Assembly: GCA_022711115.1 (NCBI GenBank) | Contig: JAKLFP010000006.1 | Coordinates: 86,214-150,213, forward strand | From: Candidatus Omnitrophota bacterium | Lineage (GTDB): Bacteria; Omnitrophota; Omnitrophia; Omnitrophales; Aquincolibacteriaceae | Direction: 5' to 3' | Length of the DNA stretch: 64,000 nt | Shown here: positions 28,901-52,900 of the stretch, in pieces | Layout: the number at the start of each line of letters is the position of its first letter | Position numbering within the stretch: the first letter of the stretch is position 1 | Notes under the pieces: generated by a model | Told to the model about the DNA's origin: nothing | What the model saw: only the letters and a program-made list of their open reading frames with translations | Databases searched by the model: none | Translations under genes and position numbers: made by a program

Positions 28901-31900
28901 CCTCGAAAAATAATTTGCGCTTCGTAATAGGTGTAATCTTCGAGAGTGGCTATCCGGTCTTCCAATCCGAGAAGTTCCGTCATAAAACGTATATAAAGAA
29001 AACGGTCATGCGCGTCGTCTGCAAAAGTACGCCCGCCGATCAACAGGCGAGACATGGTACGCCGCAAAACTTCAACTGCCGGCTGGTTTTTAAGACGTTC
29101 CCGAAGCCCTTCAAAATCATTTTTATAGCGTCCATGATTTTGATCCCTTCCATCTCTATACGCTTTCCAAAAAAGAAAAAGTTGATCGAAAGGCCTTGCA
29201 AAAGGGCCGGAAAATTCCACTTTAAGCCCGGCTTGAGTCACCGCTTCTTCCACTCTTCGTTTGAGCGTTTCTTCGGCTTCTACGGCTGTCATGATAGGTT
29301 TTTTTATCTTTTGGGCGGCTTCGTCTGCGGCTTTGGCAGCGGTGTCTTTCAATCTTTCTTCATATTTATCCGGACCTTTATAAGGTACCTGGCGTCTGAC
29401 ATTCGATGAAATAGGATCGCCAAGAAGCAGATCGCGGGCTTTCCCATAATTTTGTTCAAGTGTCGCCCAGTTTTCTGGTCGGTTTTCTTGAATCGCTGTC
29501 GAAAAAAGTTCCTGCATTTCTCTTAAATGTCCCGCCAGCTGCGTGTCATCTAAATGGCGTTCCGTTTGATAATCTCTAAACGTGCTCCCAAGCCAGTCGC
29601 TCGCGCCTTTGAAACCGCGTTTTTCGCGGAGCCAGATCAGAAGCTGGGCTGCATCGGCCGCGCTGACCCATTCATTTTGAATCTTGAATTGTTCGCGCAG
29701 ATCCGAATGTTTTTCAAGCTCCTGGAAAAATTGCCGGTCGTTGGCTTCTGAAGGAAGTCCGTTTTCCGGTTTTGGGATCTGAAGTTCTTGCTTAAAACGT
29801 TCGATCAAAAGCCTTCTTGCCGGAGACTGCCAACGCGGCAGAAAAACACCGTTCGTACTTCGAATACCTTTAGAAGGATCATAAAAACCTTTGACGCGAT
29901 GCCATGCGGCGCGAAAAATATTTTTTAGAAGCGCCGGTAAGTGTTCCACAAGATTGACGCCGGAAATGAGATGAAAAACCTCTGCCGTAAACCCGGCAAT
30001 ATCGATCATACCGTCATGAACCAGCGTGGAGCGCAACCATTCGGGGAATCCCAAAAGCTCGTAGTGACCTTCCCAGGCTTCAAAAAGACCCGGACGAAAA
30101 ACCGTATGGTTCAGTGTCACTCGCTTCGCACTCTTGAGATGCCGCACCGGGAGGCTCACGAACACTTCATGGTCCAGAAGAATGATGTTCTGGGGATTGT
30201 TTTGATTTTCAAGGATTTGGATCAGACGTTCGCTCGCGGCGCTGAAGAAAGCCATATCAATTTCGCGATTACCCGTATCGTCGTAAACCTCCAAAAAGGC
30301 CGGCGCTTCTTCTTGTCCATTCGGACCTTTGACATAGGCGTCCAGATAATACTGCGGTGATTTGTGAAATTGAAAATAAGTTTTGTAAACCCGGAAAGAG
30401 ACCGTTCTGGGAACTCCTCTCACGGGAAGTGTGACCTCCAAGGCAATATCGGTAGGATCTAAAAACTTTTTGATGATCTGACCGAGAAGTTTCCGCTGAT
30501 GATGATCATAACCTTTGCCGGGCTTATTTTTGATGAAGTTCCAAAGCGGATGAATCCCGGTTACATTCATCCCGAGCGCAGCCCAGGCTTCAAAAAGGTC
30601 CGGCATCAAAGCTCCAAGGCCGCCTGTCAAAGTTGTTTGGGAAGCTTCCCCTGCAGTCCAAGCGCTCATCTCCGCAGCGATTTTTTCCAGAACAGGCATC
30701 GGAAGACCGCATTCGAATTGCCGGCTATAAATATGCTGTTTATGAACTCGGGGCGTATTAACTTCGACCCACTTTGGCACCTTTTGCTCCCGCAATTCTG
30801 AACGTGGAAAAGACGGGGTTATCCCGAGTGTTTTGAAATCAATATTGATCAGGCGGGGATGGCTTAAAAAATCCAACGCGACATCCCAGGATTTCAGCGC
30901 AAGACCCGCTGCGACAAGATTTAAAACGGTCCTGCGGTACAACTCAAAATCCGGACGGTCGACAAGCTCATAAGCTTCCATGCCCTCATAGAAAGATCCA
31001 TGGCCTGCAGCGGCAAGCTTTTGGATCCCTGCCAGGAAATGGGTCTTGGTGTTTTCTTCGAAAATCTTTTTTCTGACCCAAACGATTGTTTTCCCTCTCA
31101 CACCGTAATACCAGCTTGTCTTCATATCCACTTCGACAAATTCATCTGGCTCCGACGGCCGCTCATAGGTCACAAGCCACTGAAGCATACCGGCTAAATA
31201 GTTCGGAGTAATAACGGAATGGTCTATCAAGCTTCGCACCTCGGATCGCCGGTAACGAATGGTTACTTTGGAATTGTTGATCACGGTGTTTTCCCAACCG
31301 CGGGAAGAAGCAGTGACCGATTGGGTTCCCCAGCTTACGGAAACAAACCGGTATCTATTCATATCTGAAATGCCCGCAGCCCTGATTCCGTCAGCACCTT
31401 CAAAATGATTGTCAATGAATTGCCTCACGGTCAGTCCGCGCGGCACATTGATAAAATTGATTGCGATCAGATTTGAAGCGGGCGCAGAAGGTTTCGGCAT
31501 CTCTTGTTGTTTAGGCGCCGGCGGAAGTATTCCCATAATCTTCGCCGCCATTGCTTCCCCGGCAGCTTTCGCTTTTGTTTCATCCGCCACAGTTAAAGGT
31601 ATTTCTTTTTGAACTGGTTCGACGGGTGTTGTTTTTACCGTTGGCACAGACGGTGTATTCCGGGAAGATAGCGCGGCAGCTTCTTCGGTTTTGGACAAAG
31701 CTTGTATGACAAAATGGAGCTCATTCGTCCACGGGTGATCAGGTCGACGGTCTAAAATAGTAAGCGCTTGGATCCGATGGAGAGGATAATGCTCAGGCTG
31801 GTCTCGAAGCATACGGCGCACCGCTTCAGCAATACGTTCCGGAGCTTCGCCCATGCCCACATGATGCACAAGCTTGCGATTGCTATAGCTTGTATCCGTG

Positions 31901-34900
31901 GACGTTTCAAAACTAATCTCATCAATCCTCATCTTCACCTGGAACATAAGCCGATACACAGCATCCCGGACCTCAGAAGGCGTACGTGCAAACACCTCCA
32001 TAGACTTGGATTCTGCTAATGTTTCCGAAACCTTTTTTGGGCTAATTTTCTCTGAAACAGTCATCACGTCGATCTTCTGCCCGATTTGAAACTCGGGTTT
32101 AGGCGCGACAGTCGGTTGAAGTGTGAGCGTGATCTCGCCTTTGTTGTTCTCGGCAGTCAATAAGAACCATCCGTATATTTCTTGGTGGGATGGCACATTC
32201 GCGAAAAAGTCGTTGCCCGTATCGTTCCAAAATGCTGAGGATTGAATCCGGCGACCTGCGCTTTGATAAATAACTTCAATGGCGTGGTCCCGCGCGATAT
32301 TCCACCGATCACCGATTTGGCGCAATGCGTCGGAAATCCGGTCAAATGTCAGCGGTTCAGAGGTCCACGTGTCTTTAGACGGAGCATAAGAAACGCTTAC
32401 AATGCGGTTCGCGTTATAACCGGTTGAACCGGCTTTCTCTTGGATATAAAGCGTCCCGCCTATCAATGCCTCGAATTTTCCTTCGTAAACAGTTCCATCC
32501 TGCATGGAAAGCTTCAACATCGTCCCCAAAGCGACATTTCCCGCTTGAGCATCCGTTTTAAATTGCGCGAACGGGACTTTGGCAAGCAACGTTTCCGCTA
32601 TGTTTTTGGCCATCCCTTCCGGCTTTGGTTGCTCTTCACCGCGCACTTCCGAGCGTTTGGAATCCACATAGGTTAGTGAGGGAGAGAGACGATCATCGGC
32701 AAAATGCAGCCAAAAAATTTCGCCTTTCTGAATAAGAATATCTCGCCATTCCATCGGACGGCTATAAGCATAACGCTGGCCTTTGCTAGAAACCTCTGCA
32801 CCGACCAGGGCCTTATCACTGAGCGAACGAAGACGGATAAGAGATTCCATCAGATCCGCGAGAGACGATTTCTTTAACGCCTTGACTTTTATGAGTGCTT
32901 CCGAGCCATGGATTATCTGGACAGCCTGCTGCGAAGCGCTAAGCCCGGAACCCGGACTCACTAGGCTTCTCAATTCCGAGCGGGACTCGGCGATGAGGAA
33001 GGAATCGCCGGCTCCGGCAATTTCGAAAGTTTTCAAATCCGGATTCAGAAAAGAGCGCCGGAACGCTTCGCCCAAGGACATCCGTCCCGCACTATCCAAT
33101 TCAATAAAAATGGCCCTGCGATGAATTTGATCCATATAGTCTCTTGCCGCAACCGGATCTTGAGGCGTTGTTTGCTCAACCATTTGCTGCCATGCTGTCG
33201 AAGGATAAACCCGCAAGGCTTTGCCTGCCTTTTCCGATACAGCGATAAGTTGAGTCTCCTCTCCTAACATGGTTCGGAAAGGTGCGGGAAGTTGGATCCT
33301 ATTTTTATCATCCACCTTGAAGGTATAAGAGCTGGTGAAGATCACCGGCGCCCGCACTTCAGAGCGGGAAATCACGGGTAAGAGACCTTTATATTTAAGA
33401 TCAGGTCTTTGTATGCCAAGAGAAAAATTTGAACTGCCATCCGCGTACCGGATCACCCATGGTTTTTCGGTTTTGCTTTGGGCTTCCAGCAGTTCAGAAA
33501 GCGATGGTAACTTCACCGGTTGGCCGTTCTTGAACCATTCCAAAACTCGGTTTTGCTGCGACGTATAGCCCAATTTTTTTGCTAGGGTCTCGCGAAGCGC
33601 TTGGGAATCCATGAACTTCATGGGCCAAGGAGCTTTAAGATCAGGCGGGAACCTTGGATTGGTGCGAATCCCGTATACTTGTTTAATTTCACCATCCTGG
33701 GTGATAAAAATTGCCTGGAGAGGGAAACGGCCGTCAAAGCTGCTTCGTAATTGGTCACCGTCAAAAAACCTGGTTTTAAACCGGCCAAAGTGAACGGAAA
33801 TGTTTTTGGCGCCGGTCCGATAAACGAGTTCATGGTCAGGTCCAAGATAAAATCCTTCGAATTCCGGGCTTCTCGGGTCCTGCGTTCCGTTGAACGCGAC
33901 AACTCCCTGCTCAACCGGCTGCTGATACTTCTGCGCCAAATCGAACAGGATTTGTTCTCCTTCAAAATAAGTGACATACGGATCAAGCGCCTGCGCGAGG
34001 TCCCTGTCCCCGAAAAGATTGCCGACGATTTTGACCGTAACGGGTTGCACTGCCTTTGCCCCTTCCGCTTGAGCAAGGCTGATGATCTCGATGCTGTTCG
34101 GATCCTTCGCAGGTTTAAAATCCACGCCCTCGATCAAATAAAGTTTGTCGCGCCAGGCCTGAAGCTGGCTAATCAATTCATTGATAGTGATCTGCGGTCC
34201 GGTTAATGGTTTCAACGTAATCCTCGATTGCCCGATCTGTATCCACCTTGTCGGGCTCGTCACGGACCGGCTGTAAAGAACTTGGGTTTCCGGTAACGCA
34301 ATGGCCGGTTCGGGTTTCTGTTCAACGGGTTCTGTTTTCTTGACTTCTTCTACAGGGGCTTGCGCTGTCTGAACCGGGGTCTTGGGAGAAGCAAATCCCT
34401 GCCGTTGCTGAGCCGCTTTCTCACGGAGTTCTTGCTCTTTCTGAGCTACTTTTGACACCCTGACATCCCACTGCCCGCTACGGCGGGCGTCGTCTTTATT
34501 CATTCGCACTTCAGAGCGGGAGGTAAGCTCGACAATTTGGACGGTAAGTCTTTTCATTTTCTCTTCAGCGGAAGTATTGAGTAATCGATAGGCCGTAAAC
34601 GGTCCCGCAAGCATTTCCGTCACTTCTTGAAAGCCATATTGCCTGACCTTCGGAATAGCGTAATTGAATTCCACAACCGTGACAGTTTGAGAAGCGCTAT
34701 CGACTTTAGCGATCACTCTTTTCCATGAAATGGAGCCGAGATTGGAATTGTCGATGCGCCAATCCTTAGAGATCAACACGCTATTTTCTAAAGTATCGAA
34801 GTCCCCTGCCGAGGTTTGAGAAGTGATCCTGCCGCTTGCCGTATTATTTTCAAGGAGCTTCAGAAGATCGCCATACGGGATGAATCTAACTTCCCCTTCC

Positions 34901-37900
34901 GCTTGCGAAATAACAAGATAAGATTTGTATGCGTCGTGTTCTTGTTCTGCGACAAAAAAGCTAAGATCGCCTGTGGTTTCATCTTTTTGGAAGTCAAGGA
35001 TCCGTTTCCCGGCAAGGAATGTTTCGATTTCTTTTTGAAGTTCCGCGGCAGAACGCCCATTCGCGGCCTCAAATTCAACCTGCCGTTCACCTTGCTTCAC
35101 GATTAATTTTTGTCCGGATTGTTCAATGATAATTGCCGGCGGCGCTGAGTAAGGCCCACCCCACGGAATGCGTCCTTTTCGGGACAGGCTGCGTACTTCC
35201 GAGCGCAACGCAGGTTTTTCCTGCGGTAATTTTCCCAAAACCGCTCTGGCCGCATCATGAACAAGGCTTTTTCCTTTTTCATCAAGACGATTTCCTGAAA
35301 CAAGCTGCTGGACAACATTGGTCACACGGGCATTTACAAAATCGATGAGATCCTGGACCGTCAAACCTGAAAATTCATAATAGGCCGGTTTGCTTTTGGC
35401 CTGCAAGGCGGCTTCATCCGTTTTTGTGATTTCGATGCCGAATCTTTCTTCGAGAGACTGCATCAGACTCATTTCATCCAGGGAATCCATGCCGAGATCT
35501 TCTACTAACCGATCCGTCAGACGAATTTCTTCCTCGATCGCGGGAGGTAAAACCTCTTTTAAAATATCGATGACCTCTTGATCAATATTTTCACTCACCG
35601 TTCCCCGCATTTCCGAGCGACTGGCCTTTCTTCTTTCATTGATGGCGTGCTGAAAGGCATTCGAAAGTATTTTGTAGGGATTTTGCGAATAAAAATAATT
35701 TTGCCACAACCAATGCGCCAGACCTGAAATCCCGATAAAAATCATGCTAAACGCAACCACGCGGGGGATCTGTTCCTCCGCCGGCAAGAAGAATGTTGCC
35801 GTCCCGATAAGAGGAAATATAATCCCCACCAGGACCTTCATAAAAGCACTGCTCCGTCGGAATTGGAGTTCAGCAAGAAAAGAGGTGGGGTTACCGTTTT
35901 CCGCTTTTTTGTAATTGTCGGCATATCGGTTTTTCATTTTTTCCCACAATTGTTCTAAGCGGTCTAAGGTTATCCGGTTTTTACTATTTGATCGGAGATA
36001 TGCTCTGACCGATTCATCAAGAGAGCGCAATTCAGACCTTGCTTCCGTAAAGAGAACAGGATTGATTAAGTCATGGCTTAAATTAAGGGCATCATATTTC
36101 AAAGCTTTTTTTTGCTGTAAAAGTTGAATGCTTTTTGAAGGAATAGTTCGAAACTCAATACGATCAAACTCTGGGACTGTTTCTGTCCTGACGTTTTTGG
36201 TCGGTTTGATGCCCATGGAAGATATCCAGCCTTCAAAGGTTGTTTCCCCTGCTTCTTCCTGAAAGAAGTAAAAACGAAGTTTGAACGGCCCTTGAACAAT
36301 GTCCTCGGGTCCCAATTCGCGGGACCGGATGGTCCCGGCAGCCCCCGCTAACCATGAAAACCACACAAGATGGGAAAATTGTGTCCTTGGCAAATGTTCG
36401 TGGTGGGAATTATAAAGTTTATCGGGAAGTGCGAGATAGTGCTGTACCGCCTTACGGTTCTTAAACAACGTGATCATAAGACCTAAGGATCCTTGCTCAT
36501 CACCTTCAAAGTCATGGGCATCCAACCGAAGCTCCCGCTCCCATCCGATGCCTCCATTTCTCATATTCCAAACAAGCGGTTGGTGGACCAGATCCGACAG
36601 TTTGAATAAAGGTCCCTGAACAGCCCGTACTTCGGAACGAGTTTCCAGCTTCCTTGGCATAAAGAAATTTCCCGCATCGTCCTTCGAATCCCCCATAGAA
36701 AGCTGCTCGATGCCTTTAAAAACTTCGGCAAAAAACTTTTTTGCTTCGGCCTGTCTTATAGATTTTGAAGCGATAGAAAATTCCACTGTGATATCACGGC
36801 CATAGCTATTCAGCATCGCCTGCGTGTGATAGTTCAAGCCTAAAAGGGTCATCTCGTCCCACGACAAAAGATTAAATCTCTGTCCGTCGCTGCGAATAAT
36901 GGCTGCTTGAAAACTCTTGTCTTGAACAAGATATTTTCTTTCGAGAAGATGTTTGGTTCTGGCGGTAGGCGCCGTGTGAAGCCCGAGAGCGTTTCCGATG
37001 CTGTATTTCTTTGCCGCGATCCAGCGATCTCCTATTTTTGTCAGCTTAAAATCAGTTTTTCTTAATTCGGAGCGCTGATCGTTCATGTAATTCGGCTTGC
37101 GGGTCACCGGAAAAGCAGGCTCGGCGGTTTTTCGGGCATATGCAAGCAGGTATTTCTGCATTTTTTCGTATTTTGTACCGACGTTGATCGGGCCTTCGAT
37201 CCCACGGATGGGCTCCGTCAGTGTGAATCCCGCGGCCCGAAGAAGTGTTTCGAAATAACTCGGCGTGACAGTAAAGACCCAGCCATTGAGAAGTCGATCG
37301 CCGCTTAATTTTTGATTTTTAGGCTTGAAGATATTTCCCCCCGGGGCCCATCGGACAAAAAGAGGCGCGTCTTTTTCGAGAAGGTCCCTGAGCGAAAGTA
37401 ATGCGTTTAGCTGTTCTTCGGGCGAAAAATAAAGGAGCACATCGCTGATAAAAATCCCTCCGAAAGTTTTCCCGTTGAAATCAGCCGTTCGGAAATCGGC
37501 GGTCATGAACCTGTCTTTAGACATGTCCCCGAAAGAGGGATCTTCGAGAGCGGCTTTGATAAGCGACGGCGAGATGTCCGTTCCCCAAAGGTCGGTAAAT
37601 CCCTGTTCCTTAAATTTCTTGAGCGCCCTTCCGATGCCCATACCCACATCAAGAATGCTTTTATCCTTGCCGGCCATCAACGCCAGGAACTGATCGATCG
37701 TTTCTTGATGCGGAGAAACGTTCCAATCGCGGAGCTTATGGCGTTCAAAATCAAGGGAGAATTCATCATCCGTCCAGTACCGGACATTGCTGATCGCCGG
37801 GTCGGGGGGTGATTTTCTGAAGGTTTCTACCGCCGCCTGGAATTCCGGAGAAGTTTCCATCAGCGTTGCCAAAACCCGGGCAAATTCCGGATGATGTCTT

Positions 37901-40900
37901 ATCTCGGAACGTTTTGGGGAAGCTGGGACTGCGGAAGATACAGGCAGCAACGGTATGAGCGGCTCATAATAATGTGGCGCCGGATTGTAGTAAGAAGAAA
38001 CGTCTTCTGTTTCTTGTGCGCGTAATTCATTGCGCGGTGGAGCAATGTAGATACCGTCAAAAACAAGTTTGCCAACCAGATTGGTCCCGGCGTATTCTCT
38101 TTTTACAATAAAATCTATCTGGGCAATGCCACCATCTAAATACAGTATTGGCACCTCTACTATTTGATTTGCATATACCCTGGGAATGTCTCTCCCATCA
38201 CTTCCATGCAGTTGTATTCTAAACTGGCTGGGCACATTAATTGTTTCAGCGCCAACATGAAGTCTCAGTATAGTATTAGTCGGCCAACTTGCCAGTGATA
38301 CGTAATTAATTTTCGCCCATGCCCCTTCCCAGTTGCCTTGCCTAAAATCAAAATTAATTGTCCATTTACCCCCTGAGATACTTTCAGTCACTCCGCTCCA
38401 AAGAATGCCATGACTGGTAACTAACGGGATCAGGGATATGTTTCCTGAGGCACTAAAAAATTCCTTCTCGAGCTCTGTGGAATTCAAAGGGCGGGTAAAG
38501 GATGCGTCTCCGTTTTTGCCGGGAACATTCGTAAGGACTGCGGAGGATCCCGTAAAATTAGCCGGATAAGTTCGTATGTCATAAGCGTTGTAATTGGTGG
38601 GGCCGGTAATATTCATCGTGACTTGATTTGTCGCAGGTCCTTTTCTGATCGACATCAGTATATTCGTCATCTGTGCCAGCGCGCTTTGCGCCTGAAGTCC
38701 GAGCACGAGCAGGCCGGTTATGACAAGTTTTGAGATCGCGCTCATCCGTACTTCAGAGCGGCCGGCGTTATTGTTGTCGTTCAGTATCTCCAGTAGTTTT
38801 AGAATGTTTGGCTGAAGAATATCTTCTGTTGAAACATACTTCCGAAGAATGGTTTCGACTTGAGCAACCCGTAAGGTCCTTTGAGCCGCTAAATCCCGTA
38901 TATCTCCGTAAAGAACACTTGCAACGCCCCCCAACCCAAAAGCAATAAGGAATGCTACTGCGCCAAATCCGAAAAGACCGATGCTCCCTATTCCTAAAGC
39001 CAACGCGAAAAGCTTATGACGTTTTAATTGGGATTCTGTTTTAAAGGAAAGCTCATTCATCCAAAACGTATATAAAACGGCTATCTGGGCAAAATCAACC
39101 TGCGCCTCCTCACCCTCCATTTGAGCCCATTTGTATATACTTTCCGCGATCTTATTCCATTCTTCTTCTTGATAAATCGTAAGCCGTTGTTTTACCCATT
39201 GAAGATCGACTTTCTCAATTGGTTTACGGGAAGCCGCCATAGATAGAATGTCATCAATAGCGCGCAAGGAATAAGGATGCGAAATTCTTCCTTTTTTGAT
39301 TGATTCGTTTAAAAAATTGATCCCCTTAAAAACTTCGGTTCTTCTTTCATCTATGAGAGGGGAAACTTCACCTGCAGGGAATGCCTCTCCACGCACCTCG
39401 GAACGTTTTTGAGAAACAGGAACTGTGGCAGGCATGAGTGATAGCCGATGACCGCTCCGGTTATAAATCACTCCATTGAGTGTTAGTGTTTGATCGTCAT
39501 TAAAATGGACGCTCTCAAGAGGAGCCTCTAAGGTTGCCCATTGGATTCCTAAATTGGGATAAGGATTGAACATGTCTATCAGATGGATCCCCGCCAAGTA
39601 ATTAGTCATACCTCCGGCGCGGACCCATTCTCCCCAAACTACCACCTTGCCATCCGGCGAAACATCCCAAACATTAGGAACCAATCCGCGATCTTCCGCT
39701 GAATCATGTAACTTAAACGTTCTCCAGGTATGCGAGCGCGGGTTTCGAAGATCAACCATTTGAAGCGTTTGAATGCCAGAGGGTAAACCTGGACCTACTT
39801 GCACCCATGTTCTAAGCTCAAAATCAGGATTGGAAGTAGCCCGGATAAAAGGTGTTGGCGAATATTGAATCAGTGGAAAAACCTGATCTGTTTTGACACG
39901 ATAAAAAGCCTCAGCCCAGTAAGGCGTCATATTCACTACGGTTTGGGTTGCTCCCACAATGCCGGCCTGTGCCGTGAACCAAGTCCCGGAAGCAAGATTG
40001 GTCGAGATCTGAACCCAGTAAGTACGGTTGGTGGAACTTTTAAAACCCATGCCCATGACTGAACCATTTTTTACAAAAGAAATTATTTCGACCAGATTCG
40101 TCATCTGTGCCAGCGCGCTTTGAGCCTGAAGTCCGAGCACAAGAAATCCAAGCAAGGCAATCTTGGAAATCGTCTTGGCGCGCATTTCGGAACGTGTCTT
40201 TGAATGATAAGTTCCGGGCAAATGATAAGTACCGGGTAATAGCTTTATATAAGTTTGCTGCCCCGGAGAAATAAAAGCCAGTTTCTCATCAAGTTTCGCC
40301 GTCACATCCACTATGTTTTCTTGCAAATTCCATGATGAGATAGCCTTAACAGTAAACAAAGGCCCTTCAGATTTCCAGGAGGGCGCACTCATCATCACAA
40401 ATCCCATCGCACTAAACGCTTCTATCGCATCCTTTTCGAATTCAGCCCTGGAATACGAACGGGCCGTCCGCGCCTCGGAACGCCGGATTCCGTTGCGGTC
40501 ATACGTCCTGTTGCCATTCAGAGTGATGGTTCCGTTTTCATTGAAGCGGATTGATTGCAACGGATCCGGAAGATCAAGAAAGATTCTTTGCTTGGTAGCT
40601 GGTTTATAAAAAACAGCACGATTGCCTAAGATTCCATAGACAACAATGACTCCATCCTGGGAAACATCCCATGGGAAAGCTGAAATACGCGCATAGTAAG
40701 CGTCATCAGAAATGATTGTCCATGTTCGATTACGCAAATTCATCATGTCAAAAAAGATATCCCATGATGTTCCCCCTGTCGTCCGCGGATCAATTCGAAA
40801 AGCGAAATCAGGGTTGGATGGGGCTCGGGTCCAACTAACAATAGATCCGGGTGATGAAGGCACAGCATACAAAGAACCGGCTTGTATTTTAAGAAACCCT

Positions 40901-43900
40901 TTCCCGGTAAAAGATCCGAACAACTGAACAGATGTTTGTGGGGTGCTAATGAAACCCGCCCAGGCAAAATTCCATGTGGGATTTGCCGTAAGATTCGTTG
41001 CAGTTAAAACGCGATGTGCGATATTGGTCCCGAAATTCGTTTCGCTGAGAAATCGTAGCCAAAGATTTGTCGGCGAGTAAGCAAACGAAGTGATCACCGG
41101 CGGGTTTATCTGCGGGATTGCGGGATACCCGATAGCACGGAAAAATCTCTGGCTTGGATTTAGAGCCAATCGATTTAAATAGAGGGCGACAGAATCCACA
41201 TAAGATTCTCGGCCGTAACCGCTGCCCATTACGTCAACTGACGTAACCGTATCGCCTTCCGCAAGTCCGAGCTCCTGAACCGTAAAAGTTCGGGTCACCC
41301 ACTGATTCTGCGGAACTAAAACAAAATTGGTATTGCTGGCTGAATTTTCATCATGCCTGTAATTAAAGTACCTGGCTACCTGATAGGCCGAGCCGTTGTT
41401 TCTCAAGCCATTCAATCGGAAATAAACTGGCGCTTCCCTCCCCGAACCGTCTCCAGTAAGTGGGGCTGAAACAATTTTGAAAGTTATATCAAATCGGCTG
41501 AAATTACTCAGCGTAATCGGTGTGTTATATTCCTGCATCATAAAACGGCCTTCACCGTAATCGGGAGGACGTGACAGGCTAACAACTCCTGTGCGTCCAT
41601 CGTAAGAAGAAAAATATCTGGGAACAGTTTCCGCATTAGTCGAATATGGGACCCAACTGTCTGGCAGGCTATTGGTAGATGATCTTTGAAGAAAATCCCC
41701 ATTGACGACCCCATCAACCACATCCGACGGAACCGTAAAGGTATAAGAAGCTGAACCATTCGTTGCCGCAACATTGGCAAAATGAAGAAAATTTGTGGCT
41801 GTCCCGTTGAAAAGCCGCTCAGCGCTTTGGATCTCATAGGTTTTGTTGGTCGCCGGCCCCGTGATGCCCAGCGTGAATTGATTGGTCGCAGGCCCTTTTC
41901 TGATCGACATCAATATGTTCTGCGCCCATCCTCCGACAGAGGACAGCATCAGGCCAATAAGAGCGGTAATCGCTAATTTGCCCCGCACTTCGGAGCGAGG
42001 TGCGACCGGAGCTGCGGAAGAAGTAGGCGGAGATTCTATTAGCGGCTCATAATAATGCGGCGTCGGGTTGTAGTAAGAAGAAACGTCTTCCGTTCCTTGT
42101 GCGCGCAATTCGTTGCGGCGTGGTGCGACATAGATGCCATCAAACACAATCCTCCCGACCATGTTGGTTCCCGCGTCTCTTTTGTCCAGAACAAAAGCAA
42201 GCTCGTTATGCGCAGTTGGCTTAAGCGGCAACTCTATAATCTGTCCCGCTTGTGGATTATGAACCCCTAGAATTTGCGTATTGGGCTTAAATTCGATTTT
42301 GATATAGGTCGGCAGATTTGTCGTACCGGCGCCAAAATGCAGCCTCAAAACCCTGTCGGCGGGAATGTACATTATATCTCCATACTTCAATCTCCCCCAC
42401 GCGCCGACTAAGCTGCTAATGTTAAAATCAAAGTCGATTGTCCATTTTTTGTCCGCTGAAATTCTCTCGACCACACCTGTCCAAATGATGCCATGGTAAT
42501 AAAATAACGGAATCCACGAGACATTCCCTACGGCACTAAAAAATTCGTGGTCTAATTGGCTCGAATTTAAAGGATGGACATAGGAGGCAATTCCACCCGT
42601 TGCGCGAATATTTGTTAAAACCATGGGTGAGCCTACGAAATTAGGGGGATAAGTTCGCAGATCATAAGCATTGTAACTTTTAGGACCAGTAATGTTCATC
42701 GTGACTTGATTTGTCGCAGGTCCTTTTCTGATCGACATCAAGATATTCGTCGCCTGCGCTAGCGCGCTTTGAACTTGAAGCCCGAGCGCAAGCAGTCCGG
42801 CCATGGCGAGTTTCGAAACCACTCCAACCCGCACTTCGAAGCGGGCGAAAGAAGTGATGAGTTGGCGGACTTCCCTGTGAACGGCAGGAGCCCCTAAAAG
42901 AGCTGAGAGGTTAAAGCGCGGAGAATTGACTTTTTTAAGATTGATATTGTCAAAACGCATCGGAAAGATTGGATCACCGTTCTCAAGAGTCGCTTCTCCA
43001 CCGGCCTTCAAGACCAGAAACGCTCCCTGAACAATATCCCAGATTGACGGAGTGGGTTTCATGTAAAAGATCTCAGGGTCTCCTTGGTTATAAACACCGC
43101 TTGAAATGACGCGCCCGATATTGATAAACCCGGATTCTCCTTTATTGAAGATCACTGAACGAGCCGCCGCCTGAACGGCCGCATAGTAAGGCGCCGGAGA
43201 AACTCCGGCTTTATCGGATTGATAAATAGCAACCCTGGCATTTGCAAGGGTACCGGCTGCAGGATCGATCCAAACGGGTTTTCCGTTCAATAAAACTCCG
43301 GGCCGATCCCGGGTGGCGGTCCACATCGAGCTGCCTGTTCCGTCAACATCGTATTCGGGAGCAAAAATAACTGAAAGGACCGGCATGCCGTCTTCAAGCA
43401 GAAGAAGCGCGGTATCATAGCCTTTCTTTTTTGTCTCATAAGCTTTAGTGCCATCAATAGGGTCCACGATCCAGACATGCTTCGCTTTCTTGGCATTCTC
43501 GATCAGCTGCCTGTTCGCTTCCAGATCGGCATCGTCCTGAGAAAAATTTTCTTCACCGAGGACCACAGAATCAGGCACGATCCTGGGAAGTTCAAGATTG
43601 AAGAGATTCTGAATGTCTCGATCAGCCTTTGTTTGCCCTGAGTTGTCACTTTTGACGACGCGATCCAGATCGGAAGACTGAAGGGCTTTTCGCATAATTT
43701 CACCGGCTTGTCTGGCTAGGCTTTCAACTTCACTCAGCGCTTTTTGAACTTCGCCCGGTGTTAAATCCCGCATTTCGGAACGAGATTTTGGTTTTCCGAG
43801 ACGGACGAAAAATTTATGATCCATGTGACCAATGGCGGTTGTCCGTGCTACCGGACGATCTCGATAAGTCTCATCGATCTTGTGCACCCGCAAACCTTTG

Positions 43901-46900
43901 GGAGCTTCCACGCTCAAGTTTGCCGTTTGAAGATCCGCCACTTGCCGCAAAGAAATCTTAACAACACCTTTTCCTGTCTCGATTACAAGCGGTTGGGACA
44001 ACGAAACCTCAAAAATTTGTCCGGCCAAAATCGCCACACCGCCTTTTGTGATCATCGAACCGTCCTTGATTAAAGGAATGGAAACCATCATCCTTTGCTG
44101 TTGTGAAGACAATGTATCGATCTGGACCCGGAAGATCCCGGGGCCGAAAACAAGTTTATGCCCGCGGGAAACGCGCATTGTCTCTGTGGTAAGGATAGTG
44201 GGCTTTTCCGGATTTCGCATTTCCGAACGATGCTTTTTTTCAATTCCTATTTCAGCATACAAAGGCTGCCCTGTGTCCTGGACTTTATGAAGATGAACAA
44301 TAATATCACCGACGGAAATGCTTTCTCCGGCAATCCGTCTGCCCTCTTGGATTACTTGGCCCTCCTTTAAAATTTGCAAAAAAGCGGCAGGCAGACTATC
44401 CCAACCATAACGACCGGGATAAGCTTCAACATCTACGGTCAAAGATAATCCATGGTCTAATTCGATAGTTTGCTGATCTTCAACACGTTTTAAGGATAGT
44501 TCTATTTCATTCGACACTTCAAGTTTTTGTCTTTGGGGACGGTTTTTATAAAGTTCTTTTATTCCTATCACGATCATCCCTAAGATCGCAGCCGGTGCAA
44601 CAATCCTGGCCAGAACAACCAGGGAATTGACCCAATCGATATCCATCCGCAATTCCGAGCGACGAAAATGAGGCGCTTCGTCCATTTCCGGGGCCAAAAG
44701 ATCTTGAGTTTGCTCCACCGCGGCCCTGACAACCGACATTTCATCAAGATAGCGGCGATAAGCGCGCGTGGTCACGGGATCGGCCGGCGATTCCTCGGAC
44801 AAAGATTCGATTTTCTTTTCCAGACCCTGAAGCCAGCTCGCCCATGCCGCAGAAGCCGCGTAGAGCCATCCCAGAGTTCTTACAAGATTTTCGACGTTTT
44901 CCGGTTTTGCGTTTTGACGGTCCGACAGAAGCCGTTCGGCCGCAGGATTGAATTTACGAACCAACGGATCCCGGATCTGGCTAAGCATGCTCGGTTGGTC
45001 CAGCCGGTTATCCTGGAGATGCCTTCCGATCTCTGTCTTGATCCTCACAGGGTCCGTGGAAGGATTCCCGTTGTGCGGCGCGAGCGCAAATAAAGCGTTG
45101 GAAACTTCTCGGAGCGCGGACAAAGCGTCGGCGTGAACCTGTTCCGGTAACAATTTATTTTGATAAATCTCTTCCAGACTCAACAGCCTGTCCATAAGAG
45201 ACGCGGTATTTGAACCGATAAAATCAAGCCCTTCCTCTCCGGCTACCGCCTCTTGTCCTTCTTTTTCAAGAAAACGCTGCGCTTCCCGTCTGCTCTGAAA
45301 GATCAAGGCCGTTTCATTTTCAATCCGCAACTCCGAGTGAGGCGTTTGGGAAGCCGTGTCCCCGCCCGTAAGCGAGAACAACCGCCCGCGCAACACCTCG
45401 AGCCGGCTCGATAAAACCTTCCGGCTACGTTCCAAATTTATCCGTTCTTGTAAAGAGGTTGCTTGGCGAAACTTTACAGCAAAAGATTTTGAGCTGGATT
45501 CCAAATTGGCGATCCTCAAACGAATCTCTTGTTCGTCAACTGGAATCCCCGGATCCGGATCTTCGGCACGCGCCTCCGACCGGGAGATCTTAGTCATGTC
45601 CGGAATATTCCCGAGCAGCTCTCCGACAGCACGGGCTATGCGAACCCGGGAATTGTTGGGATCATCACCGAAATTCCCGGCATTGCTCTGCACTATTCCG
45701 ATCAAGTCAGAGACAACTTCCGCTTGTTTACGGACAGCCTCGGGAAATCCTTCCGTGGAAATCACGTCGAACAGCCCGCCTTTATTTTCCGTAATAGCCA
45801 GGAAAAGTTCCTTCAGCTTTTCACGATCCCCTTTGAAATTTTCCTTGATGCCGGTCATGTCGGGATTAACGCTCCGGACCAAAAGCCTCAAAAGGATCTC
45901 GGCCTTGATTTCAGAAGTCAATGTCCGGTTGCTCATAATATCGTTCAGGACTTTTGCCCGCCGCTCCGCCTCAGAAAAACCCGTCATGGATTCAGGCAAT
46001 GATTCTCCGAGATTCAGAGCCTTGGATTTTTGTTCCTGCGCGTGAAACTCATAGGCCGAGGCCACGATCAGATCCAACCCACGCTGTGCCCGCCAAGCCA
46101 GTTTCCGCGTCGCCAATTCACTGCTGGCACGAAGAACATCCGGATCGCCCTGCCGGCGCGGACCGTAATCCACCACTAATTTGCCGCGCTCTGCCGCGGG
46201 AAGCACTTTCCTGAAACTTTCAACGATCTGATTATTGGAGGTTGGGGTTCCTGTCCCTAAGGTAAAGACTTCGCCTACTTTTTTATTCTCTGTCTTGGCT
46301 TGATAAGACAGTGACAAAGATTTCATAATCGCGTGACCAATGTCCAGAACATGGATATAATCCCGGATATTGGTGCCATCGGGCGTCTGATAATCTTTCC
46401 CAAAGATCTGGAACGGAACCTTTTCTTTTCCGTAAAGGAAATATTTGATGAGCCTCGGGATGAGGTGCGTCTCCGGACCGATATGCCCTTCCCCGACCCA
46501 CTCTCCGATCTCCTCCCAGTAAAACGCTCCTGCCAGATTGAAAAAACGCAGCGCCGCGAAATTAACGCCCTGCGCTTGATAGGCCTGCATCAGGCGTTCC
46601 ATCAGATATTTGGTCTCTCCGTAAGGGTTCATCGGTTTTGCCGGGATCTTTTCATCAAGCAATCCGTATTTATTGAAATTCTTTCCTTCAAAAACACCAG
46701 CGCTCGAGGCGAACGCCAGGGGGATCCCCAGTTCCTTCGCGACTTCTTCCACATCCAGCGTACCAACCACATTATTGTCAAAGTACGTCGCCGGAAAATT
46801 TCCGGAGACCCCAGCGGCAATGTAAGCCGCCAAATGAACAATGCTGTCCGCGTGATGTTCCATCGCGACCTGCTTCAAAAGATCGCGGCTTGCGATATTT

Positions 46901-49900
46901 CCTTCCACCACTGAAACTCTTCCAGGGTAGGCCGCCTGGACCTTCCGCAGATAGGCCTTCCGCTTGGGTGTGAGCATGTTGTCAAAAAGGACGACCCTGG
47001 ACCCGTTGGAAAGCGCTTCATACATGACCCCTGAGGCTACATAACCAAAACCTCCCGTGATCAAGACGGTCTTTCCTTCATGGATTTTAGGATCCACATT
47101 CGGAGCCACCGGGCTTTCGATCATGGATTTCTGCCAATTTAAAAAGTAGAGACGCTCGTCATCTTTAGGAAGGATCTCAAGTTCCCAGTTCTCTTTGATC
47201 AAAATTCCGCCGAGCTCATAAGATTTCTTGGAAGCCAGAAAGGCCGCGATCTTTTCAGGGATCCCTTTTTCCCGAAGTTTGCGTCCCAATTCTTCAGAAG
47301 ACATGTAAAAAGCTTCCTGGGCCGCGATCTCGACAGCGATATGATCGTCTTGCGTCACCTCCACGCCTCCGATGCTGCCAAGACTGGCCTGAAGACGTTT
47401 TTTCCAGTAATGAGACTGCGCCAGATACGAAGTAGCGACCGTTTCCACCACGGCTACGGCATCGGGCTTTTTGATCGGTTCGAAAGTATCTTCGCGCGTC
47501 AGCCCGACCAGAGGAGATTCCGGTCTGCGGGGCCTGTCATCGCTCGCACGTTCTAATTTTTTGACAGTTCTTGTATTCCCCTCGAAATCCACCTGCGGTT
47601 TGGTGTCAAGCCGCCACGGCGTTCGGCTGGACGCTTTGAGACTTTTTCTCCACAACACGCGAAAACTCGGGTCCCCCCACAGCACTGTGTCCTTAATGGC
47701 GTCCGTGGCGTTCCCGTAGCCGATATGGCGCCACTGCCCGTCGGAGGTTTTGATCTGGTTCCCAAGCCGGTCATCGCGATTATTTTTCTTCACAACACCC
47801 AATGCGATATGGGCTCGGTCATCCTGATTGCCGGGATTCCATGTCATTTGCCCGTAGCCGATCAATCGCTCATCCGCGATGGGGTTCAGCTGATTGTCCA
47901 CATTAAGGTACTGGACCACTTCAACGCCGAAGGAATCGAGAAAAGCGTTCACATCCTCCCGGAGAAGAACATCATCAAACGTATCCCCATGACCGGTTCC
48001 CCCTGTCGCGATCTCGCCGTTCTTGTTCAGAAAAGGCATTCCTGTTTTCGCGTCAAAAAGCGGCATCACGCCCTGTTGGGCGATAAAGATCCGGTCTTTC
48101 ATCCCGAACCACTGATTTTCCTCAAAGAACTGTATCGTTTTTTCATGGGTGATATCGCTTGTCATGATGATGACGGGAAAAGACGCGTCGTGACCGTAAT
48201 ATTTTGCTGCGGCCTGGATCTTCTTGATGATCCCGGCATAAAGCGGGAGCTGGCTCAAGGGTGTTCCGGGCAAAAATCCCTTGGGGTCAGGGCTCTTAAA
48301 CTCAGACCCCGAACCTCCGGCCGCCAGGACAAGCGCAAATCTTGATTTCCCGGGCATCGCCGGATCCGCCCGCAAAACTTTTTCCCGGGCCAGACGCTTT
48401 GCGGCGGCATCCTCCGCTGCTCCCGGTTCATGAACAGGAACGGTGAACGTTTCCGGAACTTCCGGCTTCGGCACTCCCGGCATCACAATCGTGTCCCGGA
48501 GTCGCTTGGCCTCTCTCCACAGAATTGTTTTAATCTGTCCGAGTATTTTTTTCTGCTGCTTTTCGCTTAAGGAATCCCACGGCGCCAGCAGGTGCTCCCA
48601 GCCGACTTCCTTGAGGCTTTTCATGGCCCAGGATGGGATTTCCGCGGCAACGCGTACTTCGGAACGTTTCTGCGAACCGCTTGCCGGAACAATCCCGCTA
48701 AGAATATCTTTTTCCCCCGCCGTCAGAACGGCATACGCTTGCGCGTGTTGTTCCGCAATGTCTCGCAAAACTTCTTCAGCGTAGTCTTCATCATCAACTT
48801 CCGGATCAAGACTTTGCATGACTTCTTTAAGAACGCTGGCGAATACTCTCGTGTTGAATTTCCCGTCGGCAAAAGTCTTCGGCAAAAGTTTCCCTTCCGC
48901 CAATTCCTCGGGAGAAAGGTCAAGTTTGGAGATCGCCTTTGCCGCGGCCTCTTCCATAACATGTAGTTTCAGGTCTTTCAGTGTCGGCACATCACGCAGC
49001 GCCCTGAAAATGGCCGGAAAACTGTAGCTGTTGTTCAAGGTGCTTCCCTGCGGGTATCCAAAAGCGCCTGTTGCGATAAAACGGATGTTCGGCATTTTTT
49101 TGAGTTCTGCCGGGTCCGCTTCGGGAGTCGGGTTCGAGCCCATAAAAGCACTGGCCTGGTCCTTCATGCCAGAAAAGATCGATTCCTTGCCCCACAAAAA
49201 CCCAGGCTCGGATAATCCTATAAAAGCATCCGCCCCTTGCAGTCCTTCCGCCAAACGCCCCTGATCGATCAAAGAAAGGACTATTTGGTTAATCTCGGGC
49301 ATAAGATCGCCGTATTTTTCGCTGAGAAATCCCGCGATGTTCTCCGGCAAACGGCCTTGTTTCTGCAGGGCCTCCATCGCGGCCAATCTTTCTGCCGCGG
49401 CATGGGCAACATGCTTTTTATCTCCTCCCTGCTCGACTTCGGCTAAAGCCAGTTCATGGGCCTTCGCAACCGAAAACTCCAGGCTTCCTTTAAATCCCTG
49501 AATGTTCAAAGCCGCCAGGTCATTTTTATGCTCTTCAAAGATTCCTTTTCGGCCCGAATAAAGAGGGCCCTTGGTGTCGTATACGATAATATTGCCACCC
49601 CCTGTTTTATCCATACCGAAACCGAGACGTTTCAGGAGAAGTGCTGTCGCGGTGGCAGAGGCCCCGGCGCCGGCGATCACCACTTTCATTTTAGAAATAT
49701 CACGGTTGGTTTCTTTCGCGGCCCGTAGAAGAGCTCCCGCAAAAACCATCGCGGTCCCGTGCTGATCGTCATGAATGGTCGTGATCCCTGTTTCGTTCAG
49801 TTCTCTTTCCAGCGGAAAACAGACCGGCGACCCGATATCCTCCAGCATCACCACAACCTCAAGTCCTTCCTCCTCGCGAACCTTGGTGACATAAGCCTGG

Positions 49901-52900
49901 ACTTGCTGTTTGATCTTTTCCTTAATCTCAAACGCTATTCGTTTTTTCGCCCCGGGATCTTTTTCTGCCTTGTATTTGAGCCACATGTCCCGCGTATCCA
50001 CAAACGCGATGTCCACGTTCACGCCGCCGAACCACTTCAGCAAAATCCTTTTCCCTTCCGATACCGCGCGCATCACGGCCGGCCACTGCAGTCCGATCCC
50101 AAGCACCGCGGAAGCGTCCGAAAAAATCACGATCTTTCTTTTTTGAGCCGGGAAAGACAAAGGCTTTTTGCCGTAAAGCGGCGTTTCAAGGTCCAGGCCT
50201 TTTTTCAGCGCGTCCGCGATCGCTTCACAAACGGCTCCCACGCCGGGGGTATAAACCGTCTTCATCGCTTCGATCACATCGACCGGGACAATGCCGTGCT
50301 TAAAAAATATGTCGATGAGTTTTTTGTAAGTCTGATATTCCGATGGGATCGCCGCCGGCAAGCTGTCCTCAGATGTCTCCCGAACTTCAGACCGGGGTCT
50401 GCTTTCCATACTAACCGCTACTTTGCAATTATTTGTGTCGGCCCGGGTCCTTACGCGGACATTTTCCCATCCCAATCGGGTAAGGTTTTTGAATGGAATA
50501 TCAAAGACAACCCAAGTTGTCCGATTTGAATCTACAATAAGCGAAGCTTCTTCTATCAATGCGTGGATATCTCCGTAGATATCAGCAGGCCTTTTCCCGG
50601 AAGGATCCACGTATAACCGCATAGGGATCCGGATCCGATCGTCCGGCTCAATGAGTTCGACTTGAAGTTGTTTGTGATCCTTAAAGAAGGATTGCTTAAC
50701 AAAAATATTGACGGCTTTGTCGTTTGTTTCGACGAAACCCGGAACCAAAAGGCTGATATCCTGTGCGGGTAAATGCCATTGGGGGCCTATGAAATCTCCC
50801 AGCGGCTCCCGAAAACTCCATGCCGTCAGCGCAAGAATTAACAACGCCATAGCCATACTTAGGTTTAAGAAAATAGCCCGTGAACTTAGGTTTGGATTCC
50901 ACCAGCGCCTTATCTGGGTGTCTGTGCGTGAAGCTTCTGGGATGGCAGCAACAGAACCGCCTTTCGGGGGCATGGTTCGTATTTCGGAACGGCGTCCAAA
51001 AGCTTTGGTAAGCGCTTCGGCAAGGGCTTTCGGATTGTCCCATGGAGCAAGATGTAATGAGGAATCTTTTTTGGGGTTTTTAAAAACAATTTTTTTCTGG
51101 AAAGGTTCAAGGCTTCGTTTTTCTCCTGACTGTATGACAGACACTTGTTTTGAGTTCAATCCAAGCGCCCGCTGTAATGTTAAAACAAGGTCTTCCGGAC
51201 TTTGCACAAAATCCAACGGGGCCATGTCAATGCCCACCCAAATACCGTTTCCAGCCTGATGAAAAGTTACCTCATACCCAAGTACTTTTGCCGTCTCACC
51301 CCGCATTTCGGAACGGCCCAGGTTTTGGCTTGGATCTGTTCTACCATTTGCGCGCTGATGAACGTTGATGATCGTTTGGGCGATCTCCATGGAGTTCATA
51401 ACAAAACCGTCTTTCATCACCGGTTTTACATTTTCGGTAACAAACTCCGAGGGACCCTGAGCGTAAACAAGCAACTGGCCGTCTTCGCTCTCAATAACAT
51501 GAATCCCATTCGGCAATGTCCTTCCCATACCTTGGATCAATCCTGCGAGCTGTTTTGCCGAGAAAACCGTGGTGTAATCACCGATGACCGCCGCAAGAGA
51601 TGTCGGATCTTTCCGGCTAGCGGCCCTCACTTCAGCCCGTTGAATGGCAGCAATTGCATTTTTTGCACTTAGGTGAACGGATGGATCTGAATCATTCAGC
51701 GCTGAGTAGAGCGCTGAAAGCGCTGGTTGGGCCTGGGGACCAATTTCCCCAAGTGTGATAATGGTCTGCTCACGAATCTCCGGAGAAGGGTCCCTCAATT
51801 GGGGCATTAACTGCCAAACTGCATCGCCCGCCTCAGAACCCAAGGCGCCAATAGCGGCAATGGCCTTTAAACGCACCTCTTTTTCCGGGTCGCCGATTAA
51901 ATGAAGCCAATCACTCACATTTTTCGGCATAGCCGTTTCAGACGTACTCCTCATTTCAGAGCGATTGTCCGCGGGATGTTTTCCTTCGAAGTGTGATGGT
52001 TTTTTGACAAAGGTGACTTTAGCGGTTGTCCCTTTAGGATAAGGATGTTTCAGGGTTTCGGGATTTTTTAAATCAACTGCTTTATGGCCGGGAGATGGAA
52101 TGATGCTGGCAATGTATTCACCGCCGCCTAGATTTTCACGTACCTCAACGGCTCGCTTGATAGCCTTGAGCGTCATGGTTGCCTCAAGTTTATAGATTTT
52201 AAAATGAAGGGCGTCGTCAGCTTTCACTTCCGTTAGCCCTTTGACCTTCGTCCTCATCTCGGACCTGGCAGAACGGCTTTTCAGGGTATCTATTTTTCTT
52301 TGACCCTCTTGATCTTCCGGTTGGATATAGCGGTGCAGAAAATGCCAAAGAAGAGATTCAGGAGTGAGAAGCGACTGGTCCCAAACCGGCATGTCTTTAA
52401 AAATCGTCTTGAATCGTTTCAGGACGTTGAATACAAAATCATTCTGCTTTCTCTGGAATTGCTGGGCATAGGCGATTTCGATTAACGGCCCCAAAAAACG
52501 GTTAAGAAACGGCAGTTCATAAGCAAGTTGTGTATTAATGGAACGATGCGCTTTTTTCATGGTTTTAAAGCTACGTTCCGTTTCTTCGAATCTCATCTTT
52601 TGCCATCTCCGGATCACCTCGGCAACCGTATGCTCCGGTCCCACCACCAAACTTGCGAGGATATCCCGCATCAAGCGGATGTCATAACCTGTCAGGATAT
52701 TATTGCCGTAAAGCAGCATATCAGGACTTGTATAAAGAAAGATCCCATAATGTGTTTCTTCAGGTTTCAAAACGGCCAACAACTCATCACTCAAAGCTTC
52801 AACCCCTGTCACAATCAAGGTCTCGTCCGGCGCAAGCTGCAAAAGCTGTTTTTCTCCTCGGTCGTCTTTAACGCGGATTTTCTTCCCGTCCAAAGCATTA

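Follow-up and report, generated by a model that had tools for sequence, protein, structure and literature searches.

Herein, we describe a cassette of six consecutive modules inside a giant open reading frame (ORF) of Candidatus Omnitrophota bacterium. The ORF lies in a 64,000-nt stretch of DNA (GCA_022711115.1, contig JAKLFP010000006.1, positions 86,214-150,213, forward strand), which was analyzed as a whole and is called the window below. It encodes 11,695 aa and carries 38 copies of a pentapeptide motif, R-x-E-x-R, with ~38 modules. The best reading of the cassette is that the giant product would be cut at this motif, and that four of the six modules, which arose by old duplications within the gene from one putatively exported beta-sandwich family, would then be exported as pre-proteins by the Sec pathway. 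We assign a probability of about 0.55 to this reading as a whole, with common descent, processing, and export taken together. An earlier sequence-only reading of the same DNA had proposed a duplicated block of secreted or surface proteins at this site. To the limits of sequence analysis, that proposal is supported by the leader rules, the position of the leaders directly behind the motif, the lowest charge content in the giant protein, and purifying selection.

The cassette runs on the minus strand in the order A1, B1, X, B2, Y, A2. Residue numbers (aa) refer to the giant ORF and are converted to window positions by window = 61080-3×(aa-1). An arrow marks the predicted signal peptidase site. 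The features are as follows.

25993..61080, minus: host giant ORF, 11,695 aa
42829..42879, minus: degenerate double boundary before A1; HREVR (aa 6068-6072), 7-aa spacer, RFEVR (aa 6080-6084)
42754..42828, minus: A1 leader (aa 6085-6109), VGVVSK-LAMAGLLALGL-QVQSALA↓Q, signal-peptide-like
42118..42753, minus: A1 beta-rich domain (aa 6110-6321), 57% identity to A2, 16% charged residues
42103..42117, minus: RNELR-1 (aa 6322-6326), boundary-motif variant at the end of the A1 domain
41998..42102, minus: tail-1 (aa 6327-6361), AQGTEDVSSYYNPTPHYYEPLIESPPTSSAAPVAP
41983..41997, minus: RSEVR boundary (aa 6362-6366)
41917..41982, minus: B1 leader (aa 6367-6388), GK-LAITALIGLMLSSV-GGWA↓Q
40483..41916, minus: B1 mature part (aa 6389-6866), with an A-like stretch of ~70 aa at the N-terminus, a beta-sandwich in the center, and a region of B type at the C-terminus (~aa 6685-6866)
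40468..40482, minus: RSEAR boundary (aa 6867-6871)
40195..40467, minus: module X (aa 6872-6962), no leader, no family match
40180..40194, minus: RSEMR boundary (aa 6963-6967)
40105..40179, minus: B2 leader (aa 6968-6992), AKTISK-IALLGFLVLGL-QAQSALA↓Q
39406..40104, minus: B2 mature part (aa 6993-7225), ~200 aa in common with the B1 C-terminus
39391..39405, minus: RSEVR boundary (aa 7226-7230)
38761..39390, minus: module Y (aa 7231-7440), helical, no leader, with a 37-residue hydrophobic stretch (hairpin) at aa 7356-7392
38746..38760, minus: RSEVR boundary (aa 7441-7445)
38671..38745, minus: A2 leader (aa 7446-7470), MSAISK-LVITGLLVLGL-QAQSALA↓Q, with Met immediately behind the motif
38035..38670, minus: A2 beta-rich domain (aa 7471-7682)
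38020..38034, minus: RNELR-2 (aa 7683-7687)
37912..38019, minus: tail-2 (aa 7688-7723), AQETEDVSSYYNPAPHYYEPLIPLLPVSSAVPASPK
37897..37911, minus: RSEIR boundary (aa 7724-7728), followed by an S-adenosylmethionine (SAM) methyltransferase module

Paralogy and Selection within the Cassette

Pairwise alignment established the relationship among the leader-bearing modules. A1 (aa 6085-6366) and A2 (aa 7446-7728) aligned by BLASTP with 163/287 identities (57%, E=1e-112), and the alignment extends from the leader across the beta domain and RNELR into the tail and the closing RSE[VI]R. The sequence-only reading had described this pair with the same RNELR, tail, and closing motif, and all of them are present where it placed them. 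Similarity that is merely compositional or confined to the leader, an outcome that would have undone its proposal, was ruled out by these alignments, in which whole domains align. B1 and B2 share 31% identity over 204 aa (E=9e-16). The shared part is the C-terminal ~200 residues of each; a common C-terminal region had been recognized before, with a length of only ~130 aa. In addition, the first ~90 residues of B1 resemble A1 and A2 (43-48% identity, E ~1e-13), so the similarity of B1 is not limited to a signal-peptide start and the B-type C-terminus, as had been thought. The earlier picture of four modules also lacked the leaderless modules X and Y, and its account of the boundaries was incomplete: the site in front of A1 is the non-canonical RFEVR, with HREVR another 7 residues upstream, RSEMR precedes B2, and RSEAR follows B1. 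Self-BLAST of all segments of the giant protein revealed no internal paralogy other than that of the cassette.

The duplication is also visible at the DNA level. The A1 and A2 blocks lie 4083 nt apart, in frame. The NILMSIRKGPATNQ block occurs in three DNA copies (38571-38665, 41826-41920, and 42654-42748). The leader likewise occurs in three copies (38662-38738, 40096-40172, and 42745-42821) with 75-81% identity; conservation of the leader DNA had been noticed earlier. In their 3' halves, the B2 and A2 leaders are identical at 44/45 nt. This near-identity suggests that gene conversion or an exchange of leaders took place between modules that otherwise differ. For the A pair as a whole, the proportion of synonymous differences (pS) was 0.61 and that of nonsynonymous differences (pN) was 0.27; in the domain core, pN was 0.29 and pS was 0.71. 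The A duplication is an old one, with purifying selection acting on the two copies.

The R-x-E-x-R Boundary Motif

R-x-E-x-R was observed 38 times in the giant protein against 3.4 times expected from composition, and 34 of the 38 copies have the form R-S-E-[V/L/M/I/A]-R. The flanking genes contain none in 6,241 aa. Its codons vary freely, with every Arg codon family and four Ser codons in use and with GTG, GTA, GTT, TTG, TTA, ATA, or ATG at position 4, so the motif is conserved as protein and not as DNA. The same codon usage ruled out a DNA repeat, a Shine-Dalgarno element, and a start-codon signal as its origin. Information content is limited to the five residues and a preference for a small residue directly after them (P1'). 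In its excess over expectation, varied codons, and five informative residues, the motif corresponds to the short conserved recognition sequence at unit boundaries of a polyprotein. We found no use of RSEVR as a motif in the literature searched.

The units between the motifs are protein-sized. Their Pfam content comprises glutamate dehydrogenase (GDH), malic enzyme, UDPGP plus epimerase, inositol monophosphatase (IMPase), SAM methyltransferase, an acyl-carrier domain (ACP), MraZ, a glycogen-synthase-like region, and HEAT repeats. All but the last two of these represent complete independent proteins within one ORF, as in a polyprotein. In alignments with stand-alone IMPases (~268 aa), up to 98% of the IMPase module (313 aa) is covered, and this end-to-end alignment indicates that the motif marks the edges of protein-sized units.

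A second long ORF in the window is an independent carrier of the motif in the same genome. It starts at 6942 on the minus strand, leaves the window at its left end, and encodes at least 2,314 aa with a signal-peptide-like N-terminus. Four motifs were found in it (RSEIR at aa 641, RAEVR at 970, RSEVR at 1054, and RSELR at 1835). An RSELR in a long ORF of another Omnitrophota metagenome-assembled genome (MAG), locus L035, is exactly aligned with the RSEIR at aa 641, which by sequence alignment is one instance of cross-species conservation of the motif. The giant ORF also contains a periodic array at window 50977-52266 (aa 2939-3368), where motifs at aa 2939, 3040, 3148, 3256, and 3364 are spaced by 101-108 residues. 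The array holds four units of ~103 aa; one contains HEAT repeats, and BLAST detected no similarity among the units.

Leaders and Predicted Export

The leaders of A1, A2, B1, and B2 each show the n-, h-, and c-region anatomy of a Sec (signal peptidase I) signal peptide and fit the -3/-1 rules, with a Lys-containing n-region, an h-region of 11-14 residues, and A-L-A or G-W-A before Gln. All four lie inside the ORF (aa 6085, 6367, 6968, and 7446), start 0-2 residues past a motif, and would become N-terminal only if the motif were cut. Across the giant protein, 5 of 13 hydrophobic segments start 0-6 residues past a motif (permutation p=1e-5). When the paralogous leaders were collapsed to one event, the same permutation gave p=0.02.

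Composition points in the same direction. Of the 38 inter-motif modules, the four with leaders rank lowest in charged residues (14.8-15.7% vs 19-33%). Like exported beta proteins, they are also enriched in Asn, Ser, Thr, and aromatic residues. Their low charge content is an independent line of evidence for the predicted export. An excess of N-glycosylation sequons in the modules was accounted for by composition.

One further unit, at window 44572-44646 (aa 5479-5503), follows an RSELR directly with Met, a 25-residue hydrophobic segment, and then basic residues (MDIDWVNSLVVLARIVAPAAILGMIVIGIKELYKNRPQRQ). It resembles a membrane anchor and not a cleavable signal peptide, and it is the sole non-paralogous hydrophobic segment directly after a motif.

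Proposed Processing and Export

In the mechanism that we favor, the giant product would first be cleaved on the cytoplasmic side, at the motif itself or beside it and most probably C-terminal to it, giving new N-termini. Met stands directly after the motif in three units, including A2, which favors cutting on this side. Sec would then export the four freed pre-proteins, and signal peptidase I would remove their leaders behind ALA or GWA, leaving Gln at the mature N-termini. In the A-type proteins, RNELR may either be cut as well, freeing the tail, or leave the tail in place as a C-terminal extension. The leader position and the Met after the motif fit this predicted order of cutting and then export.

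Membrane topology argues for the same order. A1 is directly followed by the B1 leader without a stop-transfer segment, so both could be exported only if the chain were cut first. When the hydrophobic segments of an intact chain are counted from the IMPase to the methyltransferase, either A1 and A2 (and likewise B1 and B2) would lie on opposite sides of the membrane, or the methyltransferase and ACP would lie outside the cell. The four paralogues could share one compartment only by prior cytoplasmic cutting, which suggests cutting followed by export.

Applied to the whole ORF, this logic would make the gene a true cellular polyprotein. It would be operon-like, with a dedicated protease that cuts at R-S-E-(aliphatic)-R to give ~38 proteins, some of them cytoplasmic enzymes and others exported by Sec through their formerly internal signal peptides, plus a conserved A-type peptide of ~40 residues with a function of its own. 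We regard this wider proposal as tentative and rate it as not quite an even bet.

Several points weigh against cutting and export. Pfam recognized no protease domain in the giant ORF or the window, and no cognate protease was found; the sole candidate for a processing enzyme, described below, is speculative. The signal peptides were assigned by classical rules alone. Since the four leaders are paralogous, independent support for a leader directly after the motif amounts to 2-3 events, and A1 stands behind the non-canonical RFEVR. No homologues of the A or B modules were found in the searched collections. The fold assignment given below is a lead only, with low model confidence. Finally, the published view is that hydrophobic segments in such proteins are transmembrane (TM) helices of the intact protein.

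Alternative Readings

That view leads to the strongest competitor, in which the giant protein is never cut. The leaders would then be TM helices of a polytopic megaprotein with beta domains alternately inside and outside, and R-S-E-x-R would serve for linking or docking. The literature on Omnitrophota giant proteins works with this view, counting many TM helices and dropping internal signal-peptide calls as artefacts. The view agrees with the lack of a Pfam protease in the giant ORF and with the hydrophobic segments that lie away from motifs (aa 3401, 7356, and 8410). However, an intact chain would place the 57%-identical A1 and A2, and likewise B1 and B2, in different compartments, or else the SAM methyltransferase and ACP outside. 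Signal-peptidase sites of the A-x-A type are present in 4/4 leaders, 0-2 residues past the motif, and extracytoplasmic-type composition is found only in the leader-bearing modules. A strict 5-residue motif in unconstrained flanks is typical of a recognition site and not of a structural linker. Taken together, these observations render an uncut megaprotein unlikely, while leaving it an appreciable share of the probability.

It is considerably less probable that the cassette is a decaying remnant of fused, duplicated secreted-protein genes, with leaders and RNELR as functionless relics. The degenerate boundary before A1 (HREVR, RFEVR), the loss of the A1 Met, and the lack of homologues found elsewhere are what decay would produce. 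Yet pN/pS stays well below 1 in the A pair as a whole, in the leader with the N-terminal block, and in the tail; the frame is unbroken, and 4/4 copies retain the signal-peptidase motifs. A slim chance is all that we grant this explanation.

The last alternative, that modules arise from internal translation starts or separate genes and that the motif is a nucleic-acid signal (Shine-Dalgarno-like or a start codon), is barely credible: A2 does begin with ATG directly after the motif, and V, L, M, and I at position 4 can be encoded by NTG start codons, but position 4 is GTA, GTT, TTA, or ATA in 11/26 sites examined, Glu is mostly GAA and so gives no GAGG-type Shine-Dalgarno sequence, a Shine-Dalgarno-like tetramer lies upstream of 0/4 leaders vs 12/17 real gene starts in the window, 3/4 leaders have no correctly placed start codon, and the 35 kb contain no stop codon.

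RNELR and the Tyr/Pro-Rich Tail

Within cutting at the motif followed by Sec export, the fate of the tail is a separate question. The tail is 35-36 aa long, acidic, and Tyr/Pro-rich, and its core, AQxTEDVSSYYNPxPHYYEPLI, is present in two copies. RNELR fits R-x-E-aliphatic-R with a small P1' Ala and lies, in AlphaFold models of low confidence, at the exact junction of the folded domain and the disordered tail. It was kept in both A copies despite synonymous changes (AAC/AAT, TTG/TTA). In the tail core, pN was 0.10 vs a pS of 0.34, which suggests that the tail is selected as protein, with the caveats that the numbers are small and that past gene conversion may contribute. RNELR may be a genuine cutting site that releases the tail as a free peptide, as the sequence-only reading had proposed; we put this possibility some way short of an even chance.

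The other possibility is that RNELR is not processed and that the exported A proteins retain the tail at their C-terminus (for instance as an anchor, docking element, or linker), with cutting confined to the canonical RSE[VI]R. No site other than the two RNELR copies has Asn at position 2, where Ser is found in 36/41 sites; since the two are paralogous, RNELR amounts to a single evolutionary event. The probability of meeting any R-x-E-x-R by chance within a 283-aa module is ~8%. Moreover, the last ~12 residues of the tail are like the Pro/Ser/Ala-rich linkers before other sites, and the B2 end is similar. On the other side, other boundaries have Phe or Ala at position 2 (the RFEVR that precedes the A1 leader, the RAEVR of the periodic array), and the exact domain-tail junction with its small P1' Ala and the retention of RNELR through synonymous changes also speak for processing. 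We hold an uncut tail to be only a little below even odds.

Two observations concern the tail and its surroundings. Pro/Ser/Val-rich linkers before the sites that close A2 and B2 (37903-37937 and 39397-39431) share 80% DNA identity and form repeat family D6; the tail end may be such a shared pre-site linker instead of part of an A-specific element. A Sulfotransfer_4 gene lies at 24318-24944 on the minus strand, ~1 kb downstream of the giant ORF end. Tyr sulfation of the acidic, Tyr-rich tail (EDVSSYYNPxPHYYEP) is conceivable; nothing links the tail and this gene.

Search for a Processing Enzyme

The peptidases of the window are an M24 aminopeptidase and a gamma-glutamyltranspeptidase only, and both are unlikely candidates for cutting at the motif. 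A domain of ~500 aa is common to the N-termini of both long ORFs (59380-60960 and 5263-6831, both minus), to a 725-aa ORF (61396-63573; domain at 61396-62850, plus), and to the L035 ORF. BLASTP connects its copies at E 1e-9 to 5e-16, with an invariant I-x-D-x-H...AQ, EG, and V-x-GGFH. The 725-aa ORF stands alone, is transcribed in the direction opposite to the giant gene and away from it, and has no motif. A profile search of the PDB returned 2rad/3b55 as a weak best match (E=0.05), which we take to represent the erythromycin-esterase-like fold of the Tiki/TraB/ChaN superfamily. This shared domain is the sole candidate for the processing enzyme in the ORF and window, and its assignment to that role is speculative. 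In the giant ORF, the second ORF, and the L035 ORF, the first motif lies ~45-90 residues past the shared domain.

Predicted Folds and Homologue Searches

AlphaFold models of the modules, built from alignments of 2 and 4 sequences, were nearly all beta and resembled jelly-rolls of the carbohydrate-binding module (CBM) type, at low confidence with a mean predicted local distance difference test score (pLDDT) of 48. The putatively exported modules of the cassette are probably CBM-like glycan-binding or adhesion proteins. Pfam (E up to 5) and NCBIfam gave no match for any cassette module, and membership of a curated CBM or lectin family was not found. Unlike the CBM30, CBM11, CBM86, and CBM4 jelly-rolls, the cassette has no sequence-family match and no assignable binding-site residues.

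Sequence searches returned little. No A-module homologue was found in a word-indexed search of 5.8 billion clusters, GTDB genomes, JGI metagenomes, and IMG/VR, and full HMMER over 1.84 billion representatives gave two weak matches only. The better of these, P0001, was unsupported by hhalign (probability 0.3), and the P0001 repeat belongs to no Pfam family. The B-type region had no match in the searched collections. Orthologous giant genes were also sought through two enzyme modules. The IMPase module retrieved only stand-alone IMPases at ~30% identity, and the GDH module retrieved only stand-alone GDH at up to 38% identity, none in an ORF of at least 1,500 aa. Related Omnitrophota loci were examined with 3-kb flanks around the transketolase match, and these stretches reached no orthologous giant gene.

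Relation to Known Systems

Giant ORFs are a known trait of Omnitrophota (10.1101/2023.11.21.568195; 10.64898/2026.06.07.730766; PMC10066038). Cleavage has been suspected in this literature from C39 and S8 peptidase domains, and the papers state that the cleavage points are not known (10.1101/2023.11.21.568195; 10.64898/2026.06.07.730766; PMC10066038). One of them drops internal signal-peptide calls as chunking artefacts, and the sequences are reported to be essentially lineage-unique. No C39 or S8 peptidase domain was detected by Pfam in the ORF described here. With at least 10,000 aa, many Pfam families of which none dominates, and TM or signal-peptide segments, the ORF belongs to the multi-enzyme giant ORF class defined in the 2026 preprint (10.64898/2026.06.07.730766). 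Like the described multi-enzyme ORFs, it exceeds 10,000 aa and combines unrelated enzyme domains, HEAT repeats, TM or signal-peptide segments, CBM-like beta regions, and lineage-unique sequences. Unlike them, it has an explicit pentapeptide boundary with complete signal peptides, as predicted by rule, directly after it.

By analogy, a viral polyprotein with internal signal sequences appears to be the closest system in logic. Flavivirus and pestivirus polyproteins combine cytosolic enzymes and exported proteins in one ORF, and host signal peptidase processes their internal signal sequences. Their polyprotein sites are short, with a basic P1 and a small P1', and are cut on the cytosolic side. 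Unlike these viral cases, the present ORF lies on a bacterial chromosome, has ~38 modules, and shows no protease domain by Pfam. Viral polyproteins are threaded co-translationally, whereas the A1-B1 tandem without a stop-transfer segment would require cutting before export.

Large precursors cut at short sites are also known from MARTX toxins (through a cysteine protease domain, CPD), the gingipains RgpA and Kgp, and the Mycoplasma hyopneumoniae P97/P102 adhesins (S/T-X-F↓X-D/E). The giant ORF resembles them as a large bacterial precursor with defined short sites, putative here, and several predicted surface or adhesion products. Those precursors leave the cell in one piece and are then processed, either extracellularly or within the host, and to our knowledge they contain neither cytoplasmic metabolic enzymes nor internal signal peptides. 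Pfam found no CPD or gingipain domain in the giant ORF, and the whole protein has only 5 Cys. Cyanobactin precursors and Kex2-processed fungal repeat precursors carry a conserved peptide flanked by protease recognition sites. Like their repeated cores, the tail core occurs twice, each time between RNELR and RSE[VI]R. Unlike them, there are two copies only, each on a 212-aa folded domain, and no linked modifying enzyme.

ORFs of 10,000 to 147,000 aa are characteristic of Omnitrophota, and the question whether they yield one megaprotein or are cut up is as old as their first description. The cassette may be the sharpest argument so far for cutting, with putatively complete signal peptides behind a strict motif and export-type composition and predicted fold beside modules that need the cytoplasm. 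The motif offers a rule by which giant proteins can be divided before their structure is predicted or their topology analyzed. The cassette gives specific new N-termini to look for and a defined substrate for a protease search. If cutting and export are correct, many segments now counted as TM helices of giant proteins may instead be the signal peptides of separate products. The gene would then represent virus-like gene expression in a free-living or predatory bacterium, and the motif would provide the long-sought cleavage points of Omnitrophota giant proteins.

Genomic Setting

The genes around the giant ORF are ordinary bacterial genes, including an MqnA-like gene (PF02621), a sulfotransferase, a split transketolase, a gamma-glutamyltranspeptidase, and an ABC transporter. 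The transketolase subunit that flanks the giant ORF is 80-84% identical to counterparts in many Omnitrophota MAGs, with PLLJ01000021.1, CAZSFZ010000003.1, and CAIOAT010000013.1 among the matching contigs. The window is identical to ENA contig ERZ27257456:k141_390352, in which the same 11,695-residue product is called; this is not independent confirmation of the ORF. No Rfam families or tRNAs were found across the whole window. Cys is strongly depleted in the giant ORF, at 5/11,695 residues (0.04%) vs 52/6,241 (0.83%) in the flanking genes. The second long ORF contains 1 Cys in 2,314 residues, and the 725-aa paralogue of the shared N-terminal domain contains 0.

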